Virus genome (UHGV): UHGV-0029174
Length of the DNA stretch: 37,642 nt
Strand: one strand, 5' to 3'
Source of the DNA: a virus
Both the position numbers and the translations under genes were made by a program. The notes below the pieces were generated by a model. The model ran no database searches. It was given only the letters and a program-made list of their open reading frames with translations, and was not told where the DNA came from. How positions within the stretch are numbered: position 1 is the first letter of the stretch; each line of letters begins with the position of its first letter. This document shows, in pieces, positions 5,551 through 30,899 of this stretch.

Positions 5551-5579
5551 TTGATCGCGATTTTTACAATATGTATATT
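5551..5579 (+). promoter_or_regulatory. sigma70-like promoter (TTGATC-N17-TATATT) for plus-strand cassette
   Basis: -35 at 5551..5556, 17-nt spacer, -10 at 5574..5579, upstream of SD AAGGAA and ATG 5596. Confidence 0.5.
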
Positions 5580-5595
5580 GTACTCAAAAGGAAGC

Positions 5596-5829
5596 ATGGT
5601 TAACAAAATGGCGCGGAGGTATGAGGTGGATGATAAGGTGTGGAGGTTGACGGTGTTCCTTAGTGATGGCAGGGAAATGACTGTTGCCCTGTATAAAGAT
5701 GAAGGCGAGGCACTTACTGACGCGCTATTACTCGCTGAAGACGAAAGGGTTTTGGGGTACAGGATTAAACCTGTCAAATGGGAGGTTATAACAAAAAATG
5801 AAAAAATACAGGTTAGACGTGTGGACTGA
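5596..5829 (+). CDS. hypothetical protein (78 aa), first gene of antisense cassette between L and M
   Basis: ATG 5596 with SD AAGGAA; in frame with track ORF 5551..5829. Confidence 0.5.
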   Translation: MVNKMARRYEVDDKVWRLTVFLSDGREMTVALYKDEGEALTDALLLAEDERVLGYRIKPVKWEVITKNEKIQVRRVD

Positions 5830-6148
5830 TAAATGCGAATGGGAAAGCATGGGGCTATTTGACACATTTGAATCAGCGCGTGATGAAGGTTGCGAATTGC
5901 TCCGCTGTTGGTCTAACGCTCGTGATTATTATGTTATTCCTGTACAAGTACCGGATAAGGCGGAAGAGATGAACCCGAAAGACATTAACTTTAACGTCAA
6001 TGTTGAATTCGCTGATTCTATGGATCAGTCTTGCCCTGGTGAAATACACGCAAAAGGTTTCCCGGCAGACAATCCAGAAGCAAAACGCGAATACGAAAAA
6101 GCTGCGAAAGACTTCTGCATAGATAACCTGGGCGCATTCGATAAATAA
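5798..6148 (+). CDS. hypothetical acidic protein (116 aa)
   Basis: Track ORF; overlaps upstream gene end; GGGAGG upstream. Confidence 0.5.
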   Translation: MKKYRLDVWTDKCEWESMGLFDTFESARDEGCELLRCWSNARDYYVIPVQVPDKAEEMNPKDINFNVNVEFADSMDQSCPGEIHAKGFPADNPEAKREYEKAAKDFCIDNLGAFDK

Positions 6149-6157
6149 GGCGGCAAC

Positions 6158-6406
6158 ATGGGGCGGCGCAATCACGGTGATTATGTGTACACGTTGAAAC
6201 AGGCCGCCCGCCTCATCGGTTATCATGAGCACGAATTTATTGATTTGCTGATTGAGCGCGGGATACTGTACCAGGTCTGTTTAACACTGTACCCAAAAGC
6301 GAAATACCTACAGGAAAAGTTATTCATCATCATGACGGATGAAAACCAGGTTAATCATTCATTCGTCACTGATAAGGGCGTTAATTATCTGCGTGATAAC
6401 TTATAG
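6158..6406 (+). CDS. hypothetical protein with HTH-like segment (TLKQAARLIG...IERGIL), possible DNA-binding regulator
   Basis: Track ORF; SD AAGGCGG; HTH call is by eye. Confidence 0.45.
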   Translation: MGRRNHGDYVYTLKQAARLIGYHEHEFIDLLIERGILYQVCLTLYPKAKYLQEKLFIIMTDENQVNHSFVTDKGVNYLRDNL

Positions 6407-6416
6407 GTGACAGATT

Positions 6417-6533
6417 ATGAAAATAGAAGTTTTGGCGCTAATAATAATGGGATTGATAGTGTTTGGCGTTCATGCTGTAGATCTGGACTGGAAAACGATA
6501 GCGGAAAATATAGCGTTAATGGAAATGGGATAA
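6417..6533 (+). CDS. small membrane peptide (38 aa, MKIEVLALIIMGLIVFGVHA...)
   Basis: ATG 6417 with SD AGGTGA; hydrophobic N-terminus; ends just before terminator hairpin; below track size cut-off. Confidence 0.35.
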   Translation: MKIEVLALIIMGLIVFGVHAVDLDWKTIAENIALMEMG

Positions 6534-6537
6534 TAAT

Positions 6538-6566
6538 AACCCCGCCGTGGCGGGGTGTTTTTTTTA
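6538..6566 (+). terminator. rho-independent terminator (CCCCGCC-gtg-GCGGGG then T8), weaker on the minus strand
   Basis: GC stem-loop followed by TGTTTTTTTT, between convergent genes. Confidence 0.6.
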
Positions 6567-6776
6567 ATCGTAGGATAGAAATGCTACTTCTTTGCCATCC
6601 CAAGTCGTACAGCCGATATATCCATCACCCATGTCATGAAGATACCACGTCTCACCGTTATCAGCCCGTACAGTGAGATCATTAATTTCATAGTCGGCAA
6701 ACAATGTGAAAGCGCCAGTGCGCTCCACTACACAAAAATAAGGCATACCCCCTCCCTTAATTAATAACTTGCTCAA
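6564..6776 (-). CDS. hypothetical protein (70 aa)
   Basis: Track ORF directly downstream of M. Confidence 0.45.
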   Translation of the reverse strand: MSKLLIKGGGMPYFCVVERTGAFTLFADYEINDLTVRADNGETWYLHDMGDGYIGCTTWDGKEVAFLSYD

Positions 6777-7110
6777 ACGTTGCGTTTAGTGTGTACACAG
6801 GCCCGTCTTTGGTCATGCTCCAGCTACGGCAAACGAAAAGCCTTTGCACCCCATCCATCGAAGGCGTCCAGTAGAAAGCATCGACAGCGCCTCGCGCCCT
6901 CAAGAATGCTTCTGCCTGGATCGCTACATTCCCACTATCACCGCACCCCGCACTACTGCCTTTAAAAACCAGGGTGTAACTATCAAGTAATGTGTTAATC
7001 CCTTTCGCCTGTCTTTGTTCATAGTTGTCACCAAGTTTAATGACAGATACGTTTGGTTCCCTGGTCACGCTGTAGCTTCTTTGCGGCGTCCATCTGAAAA
7101 CTTCCGGCAT
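6757..7110 (-). CDS. M: minor tail protein M
   Basis: SD GGGGG; FRWTPQRSYSV, YWTPSMDG and C-terminal ATFEQVIN resemble lambda M (FRWKVKPGMDV, LWTPPYEW, AEFEQVVN). Confidence 0.8.
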   Translation of the reverse strand: MPEVFRWTPQRSYSVTREPNVSVIKLGDNYEQRQAKGINTLLDSYTLVFKGSSAGCGDSGNVAIQAEAFLRARGAVDAFYWTPSMDGVQRLFVCRSWSMTKDGPVYTLNATFEQVIN

Positions 7111-7140
7111 GATTCCCCCTATAAGTTACATATTGCATAC

Positions 7141-7178
7141 ATCTTTACGCGCTGCTACGCGAAAAATGAGAAATTCAT
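7141..7178 (-). promoter_or_regulatory. conserved ~38-bp element upstream of M (copy 1; second copy 19364..19400 upstream of portal)
   Basis: Plus strand TTTACGCGCTGCTACGCGAAAAATGAGAAATTC vs TTTACGCGTTGCTACGCGAAAAATAGAAAAATTC. Confidence 0.4.
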
Positions 7179-7198
7179 CACAAGAATTATAACCAGTT

Positions 7199-7238
7199 TA
7201 CAAAATGGCTTCACATAAGGCGTGACAAGATGTATATA
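7199..7238 (+). promoter_or_regulatory. promoter for second plus-strand cassette (ACAAAATGGCTTCACA; -35 TTCACA; -10 TATATA)
   Basis: 15-mer ACAAAATGGCTTCAC identical to 10546..10560; TTCACA-N17-TATATA. Confidence 0.45.
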
Positions 7239-7280
7239 GTAAGCAAGAAGAAAAAGCAGTACCGACAAAGGGGGGGCAAT

Positions 7281-7436
7281 ATGGAACGCTATGTGGTTGT
7301 GATGCTGAACAAAGCATTCGAACAGGTGGAAGTTGCGATTGTGAAGGGCTTTGATGATGCATTCAAATACGGTCAATTCATGATGAATGCAAAAGAAGAT
7401 GAATACCGTGATTTCTTCCTGAAAGTGGTCAACTAA
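7281..7436 (+). CDS. hypothetical protein (51 aa; track ORF 7230..7436 trimmed to ATG with SD GGGGGG)
   Basis: Strong SD before ATG 7281; the predicted promoter places the transcript start inside the longer track ORF. Confidence 0.45.
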   Translation: MERYVVVMLNKAFEQVEVAIVKGFDDAFKYGQFMMNAKEDEYRDFFLKVVN

Positions 7437-7454
7437 TGGATTGTGGGGTGTGTT

Positions 7455-7709
7455 ATGAAATTGGTAGCGATTGGTAAAAATCTGAAAGCACAGAAAAACG
7501 CACAGGACCGGATCATCAAAAAGGGCAAGGCTTTATTAAATGCTTTCCTGAGAAAAGAGGCCACCCCCAAAAAATTACGCGATGGCTACGGTTATAAATT
7601 TGATATTAACCCCGATTGGCGGTTATTCAGCGAAGATTTAAAGGCGTGGTTAATTATCGACCATCTGGAATATAACAGGCACTGTGGGGTGAAAGGCGCT
7701 CACAAGTGA
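7455..7709 (+). CDS. hypothetical basic protein (84 aa)
   Basis: ATG 7455 with SD GGGGTG; in frame with track ORF 7443..7709. Confidence 0.45.
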   Translation: MKLVAIGKNLKAQKNAQDRIIKKGKALLNAFLRKEATPKKLRDGYGYKFDINPDWRLFSEDLKAWLIIDHLEYNRHCGVKGAHK

Positions 7710-7740
7710 CACGGATTTGAATGTTGCGGAGGAAAACAAA

Positions 7741-7911
7741 ATGAAAAACCCGGCAAATAAAAGCAACGTAAAACGCATAGCGTGGGTGCTAAAATATATG
7801 GATAGCAAAGGGGATACATATACATGCCCATTTTTCAGGTATACTGACGCGGTATTTGCCAGAAGTGTACACGGAGGGAAAATTGAAAGAGGATATACAA
7901 GATTTGAGTAA
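7741..7911 (+). CDS. hypothetical protein (56 aa)
   Basis: ATG 7741 with SD GAGGAA; track ORF 7717 uses TTG. Confidence 0.45.
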   Translation: MKNPANKSNVKRIAWVLKYMDSKGDTYTCPFFRYTDAVFARSVHGGKIERGYTRFE

Positions 7912-7949
7912 ATTTATTCACGAAATCAATAACATGATGAAGGTTTATA

Positions 7950-8129
7950 ATGATTATTCACGAGACTGAAGAATGTAGAAGGATTGATCTTAGTGTTGAA
8001 GATGATGGAAGATTATGGATCGTTAGCGACTGCGAGATGATTGTAATAGACAAAAAGCAAGCTGACGAACTGATAAGCGCATTACAGCTTTATGCAAACG
8101 GCGAATTTAAGAATGATGAAATTGAATAA
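7950..8129 (+). CDS. hypothetical acidic protein (59 aa, MIIHETEECRRIDLSVEDDG...)
   Basis: ATG 7950 with SD AAGG; ends 4 nt before terminator; below track size cut-off. Confidence 0.4.
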   Translation: MIIHETEECRRIDLSVEDDGRLWIVSDCEMIVIDKKQADELISALQLYANGEFKNDEIE

Positions 8130-8132
8130 AGA

Positions 8133-8162
8133 TAGCCCCGGCATTGTGCCGGGGTTTTGTTT
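8133..8162. terminator. terminator hairpin between convergent plus cassette and tape measure gene
   Basis: 8-bp stem CCCCGGCA/TGCCGGGG, 3-nt loop, then TTTTGTTTATTT on plus strand. Confidence 0.65.
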
Positions 8163-10503
8163 ATTTCCTGCGAGGTTGTAACATCCCTCCGGGCCGTTGC
8201 GATTCCCTTGCCATCATTTTCATCGCGACGCGTTCCATCGTCTGTTCAAGTCTGCGACTGTCTTCGTCGCTAAATCCGTTTGTGGTCTGTACGGTGATGT
8301 TAACAGGCATATTGATGCCGCCACCACTGAAGAGATCGCGACCAGGAATTACCCTACCATTCTCGCCAGGAATCATATACTGACGCCCGTTGCTCGTCTG
8401 GAATAGCTCTGGTATCCCGTGTTCCCCTACGCGATACAGGCTACCACCATTAACAGAACCACCATTATAACGCCCGCCACCAAAGATTGACGTTGCCAGC
8501 GACATGATCGCAGAAAGCGCCGCAGCACCAGCCGCCGCCCAGCTACCACCAGTTGACGCCGCAGTCGCCGCCGCCGCCGGGGCCGCCGCCGCTGCAATCT
8601 GGCCTTGTGCCGCTACCGCACCAGCCGTGGTACTTGCTTGCGTGGCCTTGCTCTGTGTTTCCATCATCAACTGATCTGCTATCCAGTTGGCGGCAATTTC
8701 TGACAGTTTGTTGCCAACGGTGTTAAGTATGCTGCTTCCCAGGTTGGCAAAGACCTCGCTTAACGATTGAGTACCGTTTAGCAGGCCGGTAAGGGCATTA
8801 CCCATGCCACCCTTTAGGCCGCTAACACAAGCACCAATCAGGCTGTTTGTGTCGCTTTGCGCCTGCCATTGTTCCCATTTCAGATCCCGGATCTGTTGTT
8901 CGTGTTCCAATTGCGCTTGTCTCTGTTGCGCCTCTGTAGCGCCCAGGTCCAATAGCATTTGCTTTCTTACTGCCCATTCATTCTGTGCCTGTTTGATTGG
9001 GTCAATTTCGCCCTTAAGCTGGTCCATTGGACTAACTATTTGCGACCATTTATCACGCAATTCATCTACAGGGATTTGCGCTAATTCTTCCTTCAGTTCT
9101 TTGCCGATCCCTTTTTGCGCTGCGCGGTATTCAAGGAGTGTGATTTTACCCTGGGCGAATGCAGCATCAATGGCCTTGCCGTTCTCTAACGCTTTGCGCA
9201 TAGCGGCGGCGTCTTTGTTGTACTGGTCAGAAACGCTTATGCCTTTGTCACCAAGCCGATCAGCTTCAGATTTCTTCTCTTTTTTCTGTTTTTTCGGTTT
9301 GTCTACTGGCTTGTCGAATCCGGTAATCGCTCCGTCATTGGCGGCATTCTGTTCATTTTTCCTTGCTTCCTCTGTAGCCTGGATTGCTGCGGTCAGATCA
9401 TCCTGTAATTGCATGACCTTGCCAACGGTCTTACCGTATTTCTTCTCGTAGTTGCTGTTATATTCGTCGGTTTGCTCTCCTGCGACCTCCTTCATCCATT
9501 TGTAGGCGTCCATTAGTGCCTTGATTGGCGTCACCATTGCGATGATCTTCTCGGCCACCTCGCCAGCCTTGATTCTGACATCTTCAAACATGTCGATGAA
9601 TTCGCCACCAGCCGTCTTCAGGGTGTTAAAGCAGGTTTTAGCGAAATCAGCGCCTTCACCTAAAGCCTTAACACCTTTCGTTACAAGATCGATACCAGCA
9701 ACAACCGTATCGGATACACCGAAAAGATCATCCAATTGTTCAACAAGTCCCATAACCTCGACTTTAAGCTCATTCAGAGCCATGCCGGATGTGCGCGGCA
9801 ACTGCGCAAACTTCTCGTTTGTTTCCTGCGTAGCCGCCTGGATCGCGTTAACCATCCTTTCTGCCGTGATCTTACCGTCCAGCATTTCGGCGCGGAATTG
9901 GCCCATTGATAACCCCATCTGGCGGGCCATTGTCTGTACGATGGTCGGGGTGTTTTCTAACAGGCTATTGAATTCTTCAGCACGCAACACGCCACCGTCG
10001 ATAGACTGACGGAATTGACGCATTGAGTTTGACATCTGCTCCGCTGACGCGCCGCCCAACGCCCCCATTTTCTGAATCGTACCTACCAGGTTAAGCAATT
10101 GCCCTTCAGTGGCGGACGTGTTCTTCAGTGAGATAGCCAGACCTTGCCATAGTTCGCCAGTATCCTTCAGGCTTTGCCCAGTTTCCCTGGATATTGCTTT
10201 CAGCCCGTCGAAAACCCGTCCGGCGGACTCCGCATCGCCCGTAAGCATTTTGATTTTTACGCGAAGCATTTTTGCTTGCTCCGCCATATCCATGAATTGG
10301 CGCACAGCCTCCGCAGCAATTAGCAAATGGATAACCCTGGTCAGTGCCTTGATGGATGTTTTCAGGGTGTTTACCTGGCGGTCAGCCTGTTTTGCGCCGC
10401 GCTCTATACGGTCAAAAGCCTGGTCGGCCTGGCGTTGTGCAACGAGAAGTTGACCAGTTTTCGCGTCAACTTCGTAATAAATTGTACCTACACTGGTTGC
10501 CAT
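8161..10503 (-). CDS. tail tape measure protein (780 aa)
   Basis: Largest ORF in tail module, upstream of M-L-K-I-J; helical Q/A/E-rich composition with Gly/Ala-rich C-terminal segment. Confidence 0.85.
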   Translation of the reverse strand: MATSVGTIYYEVDAKTGQLLVAQRQADQAFDRIERGAKQADRQVNTLKTSIKALTRVIHLLIAAEAVRQFMDMAEQAKMLRVKIKMLTGDAESAGRVFDGLKAISRETGQSLKDTGELWQGLAISLKNTSATEGQLLNLVGTIQKMGALGGASAEQMSNSMRQFRQSIDGGVLRAEEFNSLLENTPTIVQTMARQMGLSMGQFRAEMLDGKITAERMVNAIQAATQETNEKFAQLPRTSGMALNELKVEVMGLVEQLDDLFGVSDTVVAGIDLVTKGVKALGEGADFAKTCFNTLKTAGGEFIDMFEDVRIKAGEVAEKIIAMVTPIKALMDAYKWMKEVAGEQTDEYNSNYEKKYGKTVGKVMQLQDDLTAAIQATEEARKNEQNAANDGAITGFDKPVDKPKKQKKEKKSEADRLGDKGISVSDQYNKDAAAMRKALENGKAIDAAFAQGKITLLEYRAAQKGIGKELKEELAQIPVDELRDKWSQIVSPMDQLKGEIDPIKQAQNEWAVRKQMLLDLGATEAQQRQAQLEHEQQIRDLKWEQWQAQSDTNSLIGACVSGLKGGMGNALTGLLNGTQSLSEVFANLGSSILNTVGNKLSEIAANWIADQLMMETQSKATQASTTAGAVAAQGQIAAAAAPAAAATAASTGGSWAAAGAAALSAIMSLATSIFGGGRYNGGSVNGGSLYRVGEHGIPELFQTSNGRQYMIPGENGRVIPGRDLFSGGGINMPVNITVQTTNGFSDEDSRRLEQTMERVAMKMMARESQRPGGMLQPRRK

Positions 10504-10545
10504 GATTTAACCTCATGAAAATTGTGATCTAGATCTCTATTCTAT

Positions 10546-10584
10546 ACAAAATGGCTTCACTTCAACGAATACATTTTGTATAAA
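10546..10584 (+). promoter_or_regulatory. promoter (TTCACT-N17-TATAAA) embedded in inverted repeat TACAAAATG-N18-CATTTTGTA
   Basis: 15-mer identical to 7199..7213; 9-bp inverted repeat arms span -35 to -10. Confidence 0.5.
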
Positions 10585-10661
10585 GAAGACAAAGGAAAGG
10601 GATAGAGTAAAGGGGTTTGAAAGGACCGGATAAACCGGAGGAAGCAAAAGAGGATAAGAAA

Positions 10662-10751
10662 ATGAAAAACGTAAACTACCGTCCCAACGAACATGAGCGC
10701 TATGCAGACTTTATCGAAGAAATGTTAAAATCACTTAAAAACAAAAACTAA
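10662..10751 (+). CDS. small ORF (29 aa, MKNVNYRPNEHERYADFIEEMLKSLKNKN)
   Basis: ATG 10662 with SD AAGAGGA at the end of a GA-rich leader; below track size cut-off. Confidence 0.3.
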   Translation: MKNVNYRPNEHERYADFIEEMLKSLKNKN

Positions 10752-10764
10752 ACGGGGGTGGGTT

Positions 10765-11262
10765 ATGAAGCGGTTAGTAAAAGTTGCGGTAGCTGCGGTC
10801 ATGGCGGTATTCGCGGTCAATGCAAATGCAAATAATGAAGTTAGCAAGATGTGTGATGTGCTGTATCCAGCCTACGAACAAGCATATACAATGGCAAATG
10901 CAAACTTCTTTTCAATTGGCAGACACGGCATTAACTGGGAATATTTCATCTTAAATGAAGATAGCAGGACCAAAAAAGGTGACGCTGAAATGATAAAAGC
11001 GCACGGTGAAAGTTTCGCTTTCGTGATGGCTGCTGCTGAAAATAAACAAAATGACAATGAATTTAAAAACTTTGTCGCTGGACTTGCCATCATGGCTGCT
11101 GAACGGGCGGTAAAAGATCACGACAACAACGCTTATGACGCTGCCGACGGGATGGCATTAGATAGGGTAAGAATTGACTTCAAAAACATGTGCGTCAAAG
11201 AAGGCGCTAACATGTATAAAAAAGTAATAGATAAACACCACGAATATTATATAGGTTATTAA
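10765..11262 (+). CDS. secreted/periplasmic protein with signal peptide (165 aa), antisense within tail module
   Basis: SD GGGGGTGGG; N-terminal MKRLVKVAVAAVMAVFAVNANA signal-peptide-like; own promoter and terminator. Confidence 0.6.
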   Translation: MKRLVKVAVAAVMAVFAVNANANNEVSKMCDVLYPAYEQAYTMANANFFSIGRHGINWEYFILNEDSRTKKGDAEMIKAHGESFAFVMAAAENKQNDNEFKNFVAGLAIMAAERAVKDHDNNAYDAADGMALDRVRIDFKNMCVKEGANMYKKVIDKHHEYYIGY

Positions 11263-11292
11263 AAAAGGCCCGGCTAATCCCGGGCTTTTTCT
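11263..11292. terminator. bidirectional rho-independent terminator (GCCCGG-ctaat-CCGGGC flanked by A6 and T5)
   Basis: A-run/stem-loop/T-run readable on both strands between convergent genes. Confidence 0.7.
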
Positions 11293-11963
11293 TGCTCGCT
11301 ATTTTCCATTCTTTTTAGTATCTCCATAGCCTCCCTCATTCCATCGTCATAAGCCTTTTTATCCAGTAATACATCTGGTCGTTTTTGTTTGTTTCTTGCT
11401 TCTGGCGGCGTTTTAGCACGCACAGCGGCCCTATATCCGGTCATTGTCATGCCCCATGCTTCAGATTCAGACAATCCCAGGTGAGCAACGGCAGAATAAA
11501 CATACTCAAGGATGTCGAATGTCTGCTTATAGTCGCCTTCCTGCTCCTCGCCAGCGTCTTCATCTGGTCCGTCACCAATTAAGCCGTGATACATGCAGTG
11601 TTGCGCCAGCGTGATAACATCATCAACTGGCATTATTCCCGGTTTTAATCTCAATTTACCCGAAGGAGTGAACCAGCATTCGCCTAATAACGGGCCTGTT
11701 TCGTCGTCTGAGCAACATTTCAGTATGTGGATGGATGTTTGCACTATCTCACCATAACACCGCGCCATAATGCGATTGCGGAGGTCTGGATCTGTAGGTA
11801 ATCGTGAAGGGTATTTGCTGCCGTGGATAAGTGCGAAATATTCGACAAGCTCACTATCATTGCCGATTTTAGCCATCGCAGCAAAGCAAGGATTAAACTC
11901 ATAGCGCTTACCGTTCACCACAGCCGCAAATTGTCCTGTACGAACATGGATCATAGTATTCAC
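11274..11963 (-). CDS. tail protein, possibly tail assembly chaperone (229 aa; acidic internal segment)
   Basis: Position between major tail candidate and tape measure; no homology recognised. Confidence 0.35.
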   Translation of the reverse strand: MNTMIHVRTGQFAAVVNGKRYEFNPCFAAMAKIGNDSELVEYFALIHGSKYPSRLPTDPDLRNRIMARCYGEIVQTSIHILKCCSDDETGPLLGECWFTPSGKLRLKPGIMPVDDVITLAQHCMYHGLIGDGPDEDAGEEQEGDYKQTFDILEYVYSAVAHLGLSESEAWGMTMTGYRAAVRAKTPPEARNKQKRPDVLLDKKAYDDGMREAMEILKRMENSEQEKARD

Positions 11964-11998
11964 CCTAAAAGGAAGGGGCTAAATAGCCCCTTTATTGT

Positions 11999-14315: not shown

Positions 14316-15368
14316 TTATTTGTGACCGTAAACGACACCGGAACGGCCCAGCATGTCGCAGGTGATTTGTAAACCTTCGGCAGACATGATTTTGAAATTG
14401 TAGTTATCGGTAGGCATGGTGCGCGGCAGAGGCACTACGCCAGTAGTCATACCAACCAGCGGGGTAATGACGTTGCGGCGGCGTTGATAGGCAATGAACT
14501 CGTTGCCTTTCAGTGCATAGGTCTGACGGATTTCTTTAACCGGAATGAACGGTTTAACGATATTCAGAACACTGCCTACGACAGTCCCGTTTGCAATGTG
14601 CGGCGCTGCCAGGTTAGCCATAATTTCAGGTGACACCCACATGAGATCATACTGGTCAACGCGGTTGTTGCGGGCCATAACACCGAATGCACCAGTGGTG
14701 AAGAATTTGATGAGAGCATCGAATCCGTCAGTGGTGAGATCTTCGGAGGTCATGACTAGTTGCTGGGTATTGCGGTGATTTTTAATACCCTGGCCAGGTT
14801 TACCGTTGACGTTGATTTTTGCGTTACCGTTAAGGTAATAATCAACGCGGGCCTTGTTGAATTTTTGCAGTTTCAGGCGCTGGCTATCCAGTGCAAGGTC
14901 AATACCAACAGTTTTCAGACCTTCGGAATGACGCCAGCTGACACCGTAACCCGCTGCGAACATCGGGATCGGGTCGCCATCGCTGCCATATTCAGTGTGA
15001 TCGAAGCCATGCGGGGCTTGACCATCGATACTAACGACAACTTCATCGTTAATATCACCGGATACGCTGTACATTTTCTCGGTTTTACCGATTGGCAATA
15101 CGGTTTGCACAGCCATCAAATCGTTTACGATTTCAATACCAGTCTCTTCGGTGCTCATTTCGATAATCTGGTTATCGACAGCTTTCCAGAACTCCTGATC
15201 GAAGCCGCCAACGGCATTACATGCCAGGATGTCAGCGGTCATGTTTGCCATATTTGCGGCAATAAGAGCGCCGTCCTGATCATTAAACATGTTGCGCTGC
15301 GCCCAAAGGTGATCCCACTGGGCACGAATGCGGCTGTTGGTAGCAAGGTTGTGTTTATTAAACAACAT
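14316..15368 (-). CDS. major capsid protein (350 aa)
   Basis: Size and position after scaffold and head proteins; terminator follows, as is common after capsid genes. Confidence 0.7.
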   Translation of the reverse strand: MLFNKHNLATNSRIRAQWDHLWAQRNMFNDQDGALIAANMANMTADILACNAVGGFDQEFWKAVDNQIIEMSTEETGIEIVNDLMAVQTVLPIGKTEKMYSVSGDINDEVVVSIDGQAPHGFDHTEYGSDGDPIPMFAAGYGVSWRHSEGLKTVGIDLALDSQRLKLQKFNKARVDYYLNGNAKINVNGKPGQGIKNHRNTQQLVMTSEDLTTDGFDALIKFFTTGAFGVMARNNRVDQYDLMWVSPEIMANLAAPHIANGTVVGSVLNIVKPFIPVKEIRQTYALKGNEFIAYQRRRNVITPLVGMTTGVVPLPRTMPTDNYNFKIMSAEGLQITCDMLGRSGVVYGHK

Positions 15369-15387
15369 AGTTTTTCACCTCTTATTA

Positions 15388-26744: not shown

Positions 26745-26785
26745 ATATATAACAAAATGGCACTGCCTAAACAATGCCATTTCGT
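26745..26785 (-). promoter_or_regulatory. internal promoter-like element with palindrome ACAAAATGGCA-N12-TGCCATTTcGT and extended -10 (TGT-TATATA)
   Basis: 11-bp inverted arms with 1 mismatch; minus strand CCATTTTGTTATATA upstream of ATG 26727. Confidence 0.4.
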
Positions 26786-26827
26786 ATACATTGTGATACA
26801 AGTCACATTTTGCGCAATTAACTTTTA

Positions 26828-30644: not shown

Positions 30645-30724
30645 AATGCTCTCTCCTTTTCAGGTGATTTCTACGCATTTCAGCGCTGCCGGATTTTTAA
30701 AGAGCATTTCTTTTGCTTGAAGTA

Positions 30725-30799
30725 TACAAAATGGATACGTGCAAACAAGACGAAAAGCGCCATTATGTGACATCAATCACACAATGACGCCATTTTGTA
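30725..30799. promoter_or_regulatory. inverted repeat TACAAAATGG ... CCATTTTGTA (10-bp arms, 55-bp spacer) with -10-like TATACT on minus strand
   Basis: Same ACAAAATGG / CCATTTTGT motif as at 7199, 10546 and 26752; upstream of ninF-like gene. Confidence 0.35.
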
Positions 30800-30899
30800 A
30801 ATTTCAGTCCGGTAAAGCGCGGTTGAGCGTAGTACGATTGATGGCCCGGTCGTTAGCCAGGAATACAGCACGGGCGAAGCCGCGCGGCGGTGGCTTGTT

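Follow-up and report, generated by a model that had tools for sequence, protein, structure and literature searches.

An antisense four-gene cassette encoding a RelE/ParE-like protein in the tail module of an mEp021-like coliphage

Phages can carry genes in antisense orientation inside an operon, an arrangement that has been described as the noncontiguous operon (PMC11087260, PMC11364771). In Staphylococcus aureus phage 80alpha, direct RNA sequencing and rearranged mutants established that opposing transcription makes two expression states mutually exclusive (PMC11087260). The same exclusion has been proposed in Escherichia coli phage phi80, whose Q-dependent late operon is interrupted by a defence gene (PMC11364771). 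A second point of reference is the moron, a concept reviewed in PMC3594210. Here, we describe an uncharacterized case among these architectures and among RelE/ParE-like proteins: a cassette of four small plus-strand genes at 7197-8166 of the viral genome UHGV-0029174, a stretch of 37,642 nucleotides (nt) that we refer to as the window. An earlier note on this sequence had proposed an antisense four-gene unit inside the tail module, and our analysis agrees with that proposal in finding a unit with its own predicted promoter and terminator, oriented head-on to late transcription.

The window phage is a temperate mEp021-like (mEpimmI) coliphage. Members of the recently described mEpimmI group are Nus-dependent, non-lambdoid temperate siphophages (PMC11893012). 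Over positions 6700-8500, six Mexican E. coli phages (mEp010, mEp013, mEp021, mEp044, mEp515, and mEp554) match the window at 88-92% identity and phage MagusPhagus at ~87%. Prophages carrying the cassette at up to 97% identity occur in 35 of 5,426 complete E. coli genomes, all of them chromosomal. Nearly all long genes of the window lie on the minus strand, including the two that flank the cassette in the late operon. To the left is a minor tail gene resembling lambda M (6757-7110, minus strand; Pfam PF05939 Phage_min_tail, 99.8 bits), and to the right is the 780 amino acid (aa) tail tape measure gene (8161-10503, minus strand), taken from the list of open reading frames (ORFs) and labeled 'tape measure protein' by the Prokaryotic Genome Annotation Pipeline (PGAP) in a 97%-identical prophage (L001). 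These assignments bear out the location between M and the tape measure gene that had been given from the sequence alone.

The layout corresponds to that of a noncontiguous operon, with M, the tape measure gene, and neighboring tail genes on the minus strand and the cassette on the plus strand between them. As with tha/ith of 80alpha and taiEcA of phi80, antisense genes with their own promoter sit inside an operon. In contrast, the cassette encodes proteins unrelated to those systems, with neither HEPN nor Tai homology and without a PADLOC match, the tail module holds three separate antisense islands, and the layout is known here from sequence alone. To describe antisense cargo in a tail module as uncommon was thus an overstatement, since the architecture is published and the tail module of the window contains three reversed cassettes (5551-6556, 7197-8166, and 10543-11290). 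The cassette also resembles phage morons, such as HK97 gp15 in the tail region and lambda bor and lom, in having its own predicted promoter and terminator, lying between conserved late genes, and being lower in GC content. Its GC content is 38-43% and that of the flanking tail genes 47-58%, a difference to be expected if the DNA was acquired, and strand skews are reversed within the cassette.

All four ORFs are present at the sizes originally listed (51, 84, 56, and 59 aa), and all four are true protein genes under purifying selection. On the plus strand, these are ORF1 (7281-7436; 51 aa, acidic, isoelectric point (pI) 4.85), ORF2 (7455-7709; 84 aa, basic, pI 9.95), ORF3 (7741-7911; 56 aa, basic, pI 9.84), and ORF4 (7950-8129; 59 aa, very acidic, pI 4.25). 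Related loci were gathered through ORF2 (38 loci) and through the flanking M protein (45 loci), with the latter retrieval imposing no bias on cassette content. The pairwise ratio of non-synonymous to synonymous change (pN/pS) in related loci was 0.11 for ORF1, 0.13 for ORF2, 0.18 for ORF3, and 0.22 for ORF4, which is the range of the structural gene M (0.12) and argues that each encodes a protein. Two other candidates were discarded. An overlapping ORF with a TTG start (7856-7969) had a pN/pS of 1.04 and is not coding. A 68-aa version of ORF1 that appears in many databases would start from an ATG at 7230, inside the -10 region of the promoter, and its frame is broken in relatives by indels not divisible by three. 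Each ORF had been credited with a good Shine-Dalgarno (SD) sequence. Predicted pairing with the 3' end of 16S ribosomal RNA upholds this for ORF1 (-11.2 kcal/mol) and ORF3 (-9.5 kcal/mol), but it is moderate for ORF2 (-6.0 kcal/mol) and weak for ORF4 (-3.5 kcal/mol). An Rfam scan of the whole window returned no RNA family.

The statement that no function is recognizable does not hold for ORF2, which we classify from its sequence and predicted structure as a RelE/ParE-superfamily toxin-like protein with predicted toxicity. ORF2 matches Pfam PF24732 (ParE_like, 'ParE-like toxin domain') with 43.3 bits relative to a cut-off of 24.4 (E 3.7e-11), over ORF2 residues 19-75 and profile positions 2-67 of 67. 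Its close relatives all have the same precomputed Pfam match, and in near-identical prophages the protein is annotated by PGAP as 'ParE family toxin-like protein'. Structural matches to the AlphaFold model of ORF2 (predicted local distance difference test (pLDDT) 90) are nearly all RelE/YoeB/YafQ/HigB/ParE toxins, with the best superpositions on 3bpq, 7nbu, 4q2u, 2a6q, and 5czf at modest scores. The model has the RelE/ParE arrangement of N-terminal helical structure on a 3-4-stranded antiparallel sheet followed by a C-terminal helix, although it has one N-terminal helix where the canonical fold has two. Hence, ORF2 is like the type II toxins YoeB, RelE, YafQ, HigB, and ParE2 (the last from the prophage-borne PaaR2-PaaA2-ParE2 system) in PF24732 membership, model superposition, and being a small basic protein, but it differs in lacking one helix and any solved relative detectable by sequence. 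Searches of the PDB with the ORF2 sequence and with an ORF2 profile gave only chance matches, and a literature search found no paper on PF24732 or on 'ParE family toxin-like protein'.

Residues K40, L41, G46, R56, and H70 are invariant in distant ORF2 relatives (K40, R56, and H70 over 14 relatives). An hhalign alignment to YoeB, using a query identical to PDB 2a6q_E, placed R56 on the catalytic R65, albeit in a weak alignment with a probability of 1.3%. With an arginine in strand 3 and a histidine after the last strand, ORF2 looks more like the RNase branch of the superfamily than the gyrase-poison branch. At least six independent truncated variants of ORF2 in public assemblies (proteins P0036-P0041) break at the same C5A6 tract, which encodes the PKKL motif (window ~7565-7575, ACCCCCAAAAAATTA), and another locus (L029) has a 1-nt frameshift of ORF2 in a different A run. 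The C5A6 tract may be a hot spot for mutations inactivating the toxin-like gene, although the truncations may also be assembly errors.

ORF2 may instead have ceased to be a toxin, having been domesticated for a regulatory or binding role on the ribosome, RNA, or a host protein, with the cassette being a set of unrelated small accessory proteins. The missing N-terminal helix and modest structural scores are consistent with such a change, as are the absence of a solved relative found by sequence and the tolerance of ORF2 without ORF1 described below. We nevertheless consider this explanation doubtful. The invariance of K40, R56, and H70 in distant relatives suggests a conserved active or binding site, and independent frameshifts at one C5A6 tract would fit occasional counter-selection of a harmful gene.

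The four genes differ widely in how consistently they are kept. Among the 45 loci retrieved through M, ORF2 is present in all 45 and ORF1 in 43, as compared to roughly 21 for ORF3 and 18 for ORF4. ORF1 and ORF2 occur together in 43 of the 45 loci and are the only cassette genes in about one third of loci. The presence of ORF3 and ORF4 is independent of each other, and the loci with ORF4 include alleles of 46-51% identity. Across loci, the gap between M and the tape measure gene is a mosaic in which a constant promoter is followed by small modules, ordered as ORF1, ORF2, and then optionally c7 (49 aa), c3 (30 aa), ORF3, ORF4, and c5 (95 aa, membrane-like). Purifying selection is also evident in the additional modules c3, c7, and c5. 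ORF1 and ORF2 thus behave as family-wide core genes, and ORF3 and ORF4 are swappable cargo. The term cargo, which had been applied to the whole cassette, is apt for ORF3 and ORF4 but not for the ORF1-ORF2 core. The same division separates the cassette from classical morons: ORF3 and ORF4, like c3, c7, and c5, show the presence/absence polymorphism of morons, whereas the core is not 'more on' in some genomes.

Comparison of the junction and sensitive homology searches, both of which the earlier note had recommended, yielded a family for ORF2 but left ORF1, ORF3, and ORF4 without a recognized function. Relatives of ORF1 are all close, with at least 76% identity except for a few truncated or frameshifted variants, and no family was found for it outside PHROG 29810. 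Its best structural model is a compact beta-beta-alpha-beta domain (pLDDT 89.9, with the other four models at 53-77), for which a fold search gave only generic split beta-alpha-beta matches. ORF3 has no match in Pfam, NCBIfam, or PADLOC. ORF4 matches phrog_13627 (E 4.9e-9). Neither ORF3 nor ORF4 has a match beyond PHROGs of unknown function, and no relatives were found outside mEpimmI-type phages apart from one marginal match in an Acinetobacter phage.

Our tentative interpretation, to which we assign a little less than an even chance, is that ORF2 is a toxin-like protein restrained by ORF1 as its acidic partner, with both expressed outside the late phase. In this scenario, the cassette would be a self-contained, moron-like accessory unit with its own transcription, lying antisense within the late tail operon, in which a sigma-70-type promoter (7197-7238) would drive the four genes up to an intrinsic terminator (8134-8166). 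ORF2 would poison translation by ribosome-associated cleavage of mRNA or, less likely, would target DNA gyrase. ORF1 would be made in excess and restrain ORF2 in the manner of an immunity protein or antitoxin. Transcription of the cassette would occur while the late operon is silent, and antiterminated late transcription from the tape measure gene would later overrun and silence it. The phage might benefit through retention of the prophage or exclusion of other phages.

Several properties of ORF1 and ORF2 fit such a pair. The genes are on the same strand behind one promoter, 18 nt separate the ORF1 stop from the ORF2 start, and the small acidic ORF1 lies just upstream of ORF2 in the antitoxin-then-toxin order of type II toxin-antitoxin (TA) systems. 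In addition to the fold of ORF2, the two proteins have opposite charges (pI 4.85 versus 9.95), and ORF1 has the stronger SD sequence (-11.2 versus -6.0 kcal/mol).

Several observations weigh against this interpretation, and against a classical TA pair in particular. In one lineage (loci L011 and L021), ORF1 is precisely absent and full-length ORF2 is kept with all of its invariant residues. Between the two ORF2 copies there are 7 synonymous and 3 non-synonymous differences (pN/pS ~0.1). ORF1 is therefore not an indispensable antitoxin, since ORF2 remains under purifying selection without it. The loss of ORF1 apparently occurred by recombination between two G-rich ribosome-binding sites. As c3 lies immediately downstream of ORF2 in both ORF1-less loci, it might conceivably act there as a substitute partner. 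Divergence of ORF1 and ORF2 is uncorrelated (r = 0.12), with no sign of co-divergence, and one and the same ORF1 allele accompanies ORF2 alleles whose identity to that of the window ranges from 62 to 90%. None of the usual antitoxin features was seen in ORF1 (a ribbon-helix-helix (RHH), helix-turn-helix (HTH), Phd/YefM, or AbrB domain, or a disordered toxin-wrapping tail); unlike type II antitoxins, it is compact rather than RHH, HTH, Phd-type, or disordered. In this respect ORF1 resembles PaaA2 of the PaaR2-PaaA2-ParE2 system, which is likewise not known to have a DNA-binding domain. No cassette ORF matched NCBIfam, and PADLOC-DB 2.0 gave no family at E <=1 for six ORF versions. Distant PF24732 relatives have no conserved neighbor and sit in same-strand arrays of small genes in virulent-type phages. 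Finally, a 12-nt element of the cassette promoter recurs in the main early promoter of the family, which is unexpected for a classical TA pair. ORF2 differs from type II TA systems in that one lineage keeps it in the absence of ORF1 and in that its relatives stand alone, and its toxicity is predicted.

The context of the distant relatives raises the possibility that ORF2 acts alone, as an early lytic effector that uses its RelE/ParE fold, for instance in cleaving host or phage mRNA at the ribosome. The cassette would then have an early-type promoter that is repressed in the lysogen, fires after infection or induction, and is later silenced by converging late transcription. ORF1 would be either a dispensable modulator or a small early protein in its own right. 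We regard this as a serious alternative, although less likely than the toxin-partner interpretation. An exhaustive profile search of 1.8 billion representatives recovered only ten ORF2 relatives. The five that could be placed in genomic context each stand alone in a long same-strand series of small genes, and their neighbors are unrelated. A T7-type RNA polymerase gene follows directly downstream of one (L097), and another is beside a T7 gp0.4-family gene (L096). More relatives were added by tblastn from a Sortsnevirus, Kosakonia phage Kc237, and a Klebsiella Alcyoneusvirus, which also belong to the closest relatives outside of mEpimmI phages. A conserved partner gene was looked for beside the five distant homologues and none was found. 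These contexts suggest that PF24732 proteins can exist as solo genes in virulent-looking phages, where an addiction module would be without obvious purpose. T4 RegB, a stand-alone phage endoribonuclease with a reported RelE/YoeB-like fold, would be a precedent for such a phage RNase without an antitoxin. The purifying selection on ORF2 in the ORF1-less lineage and the core-gene-like presence of ORF2 in every family member point in the same direction. On the other hand, a stand-alone ORF2 leaves its linkage to ORF1 in 43 of 45 loci unexplained, and a head-on gene with its own terminator in a late operon is more typical of morons expressed in the lysogen than of early genes.

Whether the cassette belongs with early or lysogenic expression depends in part on its promoter. 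The earlier note had placed a promoter around the 15-mer ACAAAATGGCTTCAC, and this prediction is well supported. The putative sigma-70-like promoter (7197-7238, plus strand) has an upstream element TTTACAAAATGG at 7197-7208, a -35 box TTCACA at 7210-7215, and a -10 box TATATA at 7233-7238, separated by a spacer of 17 nt ending in TG (7231-7232), with transcription probably starting at ~7245. The 15-mer (7200-7214) contributes to both the upstream element and the -35 box. In an alignment of 35 distinct upstream sequences from related phages, GTTTACAAAATGGCTTCAC and TGTATA(T/C)AG upstream of ORF1 are invariant or nearly so, while the 15-16 nt between the boxes vary freely. We assigned the promoter on this basis because constant boxes with a variable spacer are a classic promoter footprint; owing to the final A of its -10 box, it had escaped a simple consensus scan. 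The promoter region is bracketed by a conserved inverted repeat of 9 bp, ATACATCTT (7139-7147) and AAGATGTAT (7228-7236), with copies ~80 bp apart, the right copy overlapping the -10 box. There is also a conserved direct repeat, TACGCG-N4-TACGCG, at ~7148-7163. Either repeat could be a regulatory site.

Two other predicted promoters share the upstream element. A sister promoter of the third reversed cassette (10543-10584, plus strand) reads TATACAAAATGG-CTTCAC-N17(TG)-TATAAA, contains the second exact copy of the 15-mer (10546-10560), and is conserved in related loci. It sits within a palindrome, TATACAAAATG-N18-CATTTTGTATA, whose arms are 11 bp long and whose right arm supplies the -10 box. 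In mEp021 (L100), the early promoter predicted by consensus before the N-like antiterminator gene (11925-11970) reads TATACAAAATGG-ATTGAC-N17-TATATT, and its boxes are invariant and its spacer variable across 36 related phages (loci L101-L143, around 2110-2370). All three promoters have the 12-nt block T(A/T)TACAAAATGG directly upstream of the -35 box. If this block is an operator, the cassette could be co-regulated with the early genes, in line with an early effector. However, the block may be nothing but an A/T-rich UP-like element of strong promoters, in which case the cassette could be constitutive and expressed in the lysogen. We compared the early and cassette copies of the element in the same genomes and saw no co-variation, of which little could be expected because the early copy is nearly invariant while the cassette copy drifts. 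The mEpimmI genome paper defines no Rep021 operators (PMC11893012), and a literature search found no transcriptome of an mEpimmI lysogen.

A broader version of the early-effector explanation would make PF24732 proteins antitoxin-independent early effectors in virulent and temperate phages alike, with mEpimmI phages running ORF2 and the two other reversed cassettes from copies of an early-promoter module (TATACAAAATGG, -35, N17, -10). This generalization is unlikely in our estimation. If true, the tail operon would hold islands of the 'early on, late off' kind, which oncoming antiterminated transcription of the late genes would silence.

Sequences related to the shared element also occur elsewhere. 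The 10-mer ACAAAATGGC has 15 occurrences in the window versus 5 expected. This excess is partly trivial because several copies are start-codon contexts inside or at genes, and only intergenic copies were retained as regulatory candidates. Intergenic copies of TACAAAATGG in the early/regulatory region include an inverted pair, TATAACAAAATGGCA-N12-TGCCATTTCGTATA, at 26750-26788 and a cluster of three at 30723-30801. The mEp021 equivalent of this cluster (20076-20154) flanks an annotated terminator, at the stated place of the published nutR2 site.

The strong hairpin terminator that had been noted at the end of the cassette is likewise supported. It lies between the convergent ORF4 and tape measure genes (8134-8166), with a stem at 8134-8156 followed by TTTTGTTTATTT, which supplies a plus-strand U tract at 8157-8166. 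The predicted RNA fold is -22.2 kcal/mol on the plus strand (z = -5.6) as compared to -16.9 kcal/mol on the minus strand, where the U tract is poor (CUAUCUUUAU). Late transcription would reach M from the tape measure gene by passing through the hairpin in its weak orientation and continuing antisense to the cassette for ~1 kb. One gene in mEp021 is annotated as a putative late gene regulator Q. It had been proposed that the cassette could interfere with late transcription, which is plausible, but the published noncontiguous operons (PMC11087260, PMC11364771) suggest that interference would run mainly in the other direction, with late transcription silencing the insert.

This arrangement could also be viewed as a device at the level of RNA, in which antisense transcription tunes or separates expression of the tape measure gene and the downstream M-L-K-I-J late genes, and the ORFs are incidental. 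Three reversed units occur at successive gene junctions of the tail operon, each opposing late transcription, and the terminator hairpin here is 5 nt from the tape measure stop codon. Yet purifying selection at the protein level on the four ORFs as well as on c3, c7, and c5 shows that the proteins matter, and module content changes behind an unchanged promoter. We therefore consider this explanation very improbable.

The other two reversed cassettes have contents of their own. The first (5551-6556, plus strand), between L-like and M-like tail genes, has a promoter-like sequence TTGATC-17-TATATT (5551-5579) with TG before the -10 box. It comprises ORFs at 5608-5829 (73 aa), 5798-6148 (116 aa), 6158-6406 (82 aa), and 6417-6533 (38 aa, hydrophobic), followed by a terminator at 6539-6556. 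An exact copy of ACAAAATGGC at 5603 overlaps the first start codon, and the 82-aa ORF has a Pfam ANT/KilAC antirepressor domain. The third (10543-11290, plus strand), upstream of the tape measure gene, has an ORF at ~10663-10751, a 165-aa ORF at 10765-11262, and a terminator at ~11263-11290. The 165-aa ORF has a signal-peptide-like N terminus and no Pfam match. Outside the tail module, gp23 in the early region of mEp021 (15105-15377) is annotated as 'putative toxin-antitoxin system subunit'. By map position, a 91-aa ORF of the window (~35178-35453, minus strand) may be its equivalent and a second TA-like gene.

The surroundings of the cassette vary as well. Directly downstream of M is a minus-strand ORF of ~60 aa (6564-6746) with a strong SD sequence (GGGAGGGGG), corresponding to the hypothetical mEp010_106 of mEp010 and having no match in Pfam. 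Some relatives (L004 / L052, IMG/VR 2695420423_000006) have an extra insertion of ~490 bp between M and the cassette promoter, and in mEp515 (PP180003.1) an 'HNH endonuclease motif containing protein' is among the features annotated in the matched M-to-tape-measure region. Given these two observations, the junction appears to accept further insertions, possibly of a homing-endonuclease-type gene.

These findings bear on a group of phages that is reportedly as common as lambdoid phages in one human-gut coliphage collection (PMC11893012). The genome paper for the group does not discuss its reversed cassettes (PMC11893012), and the cassette is present yet undiscussed in published genomes even though Pfam and PGAP already label ORF2. 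The element shared with the main early promoter makes the timing of expression directly testable, and a Rep021 plasmid has been described (PMC11893012). That a toxin-like gene can persist without its presumed partner, and has relatives standing alone in virulent-type phages, calls into question an automatic 'toxin-antitoxin' label on PF24732. A RelE/ParE-type protein in every examined member of the family could explain prophage retention, phage exclusion, or host shut-off, all of which bear on E. coli population dynamics and the outcomes of phage therapy.

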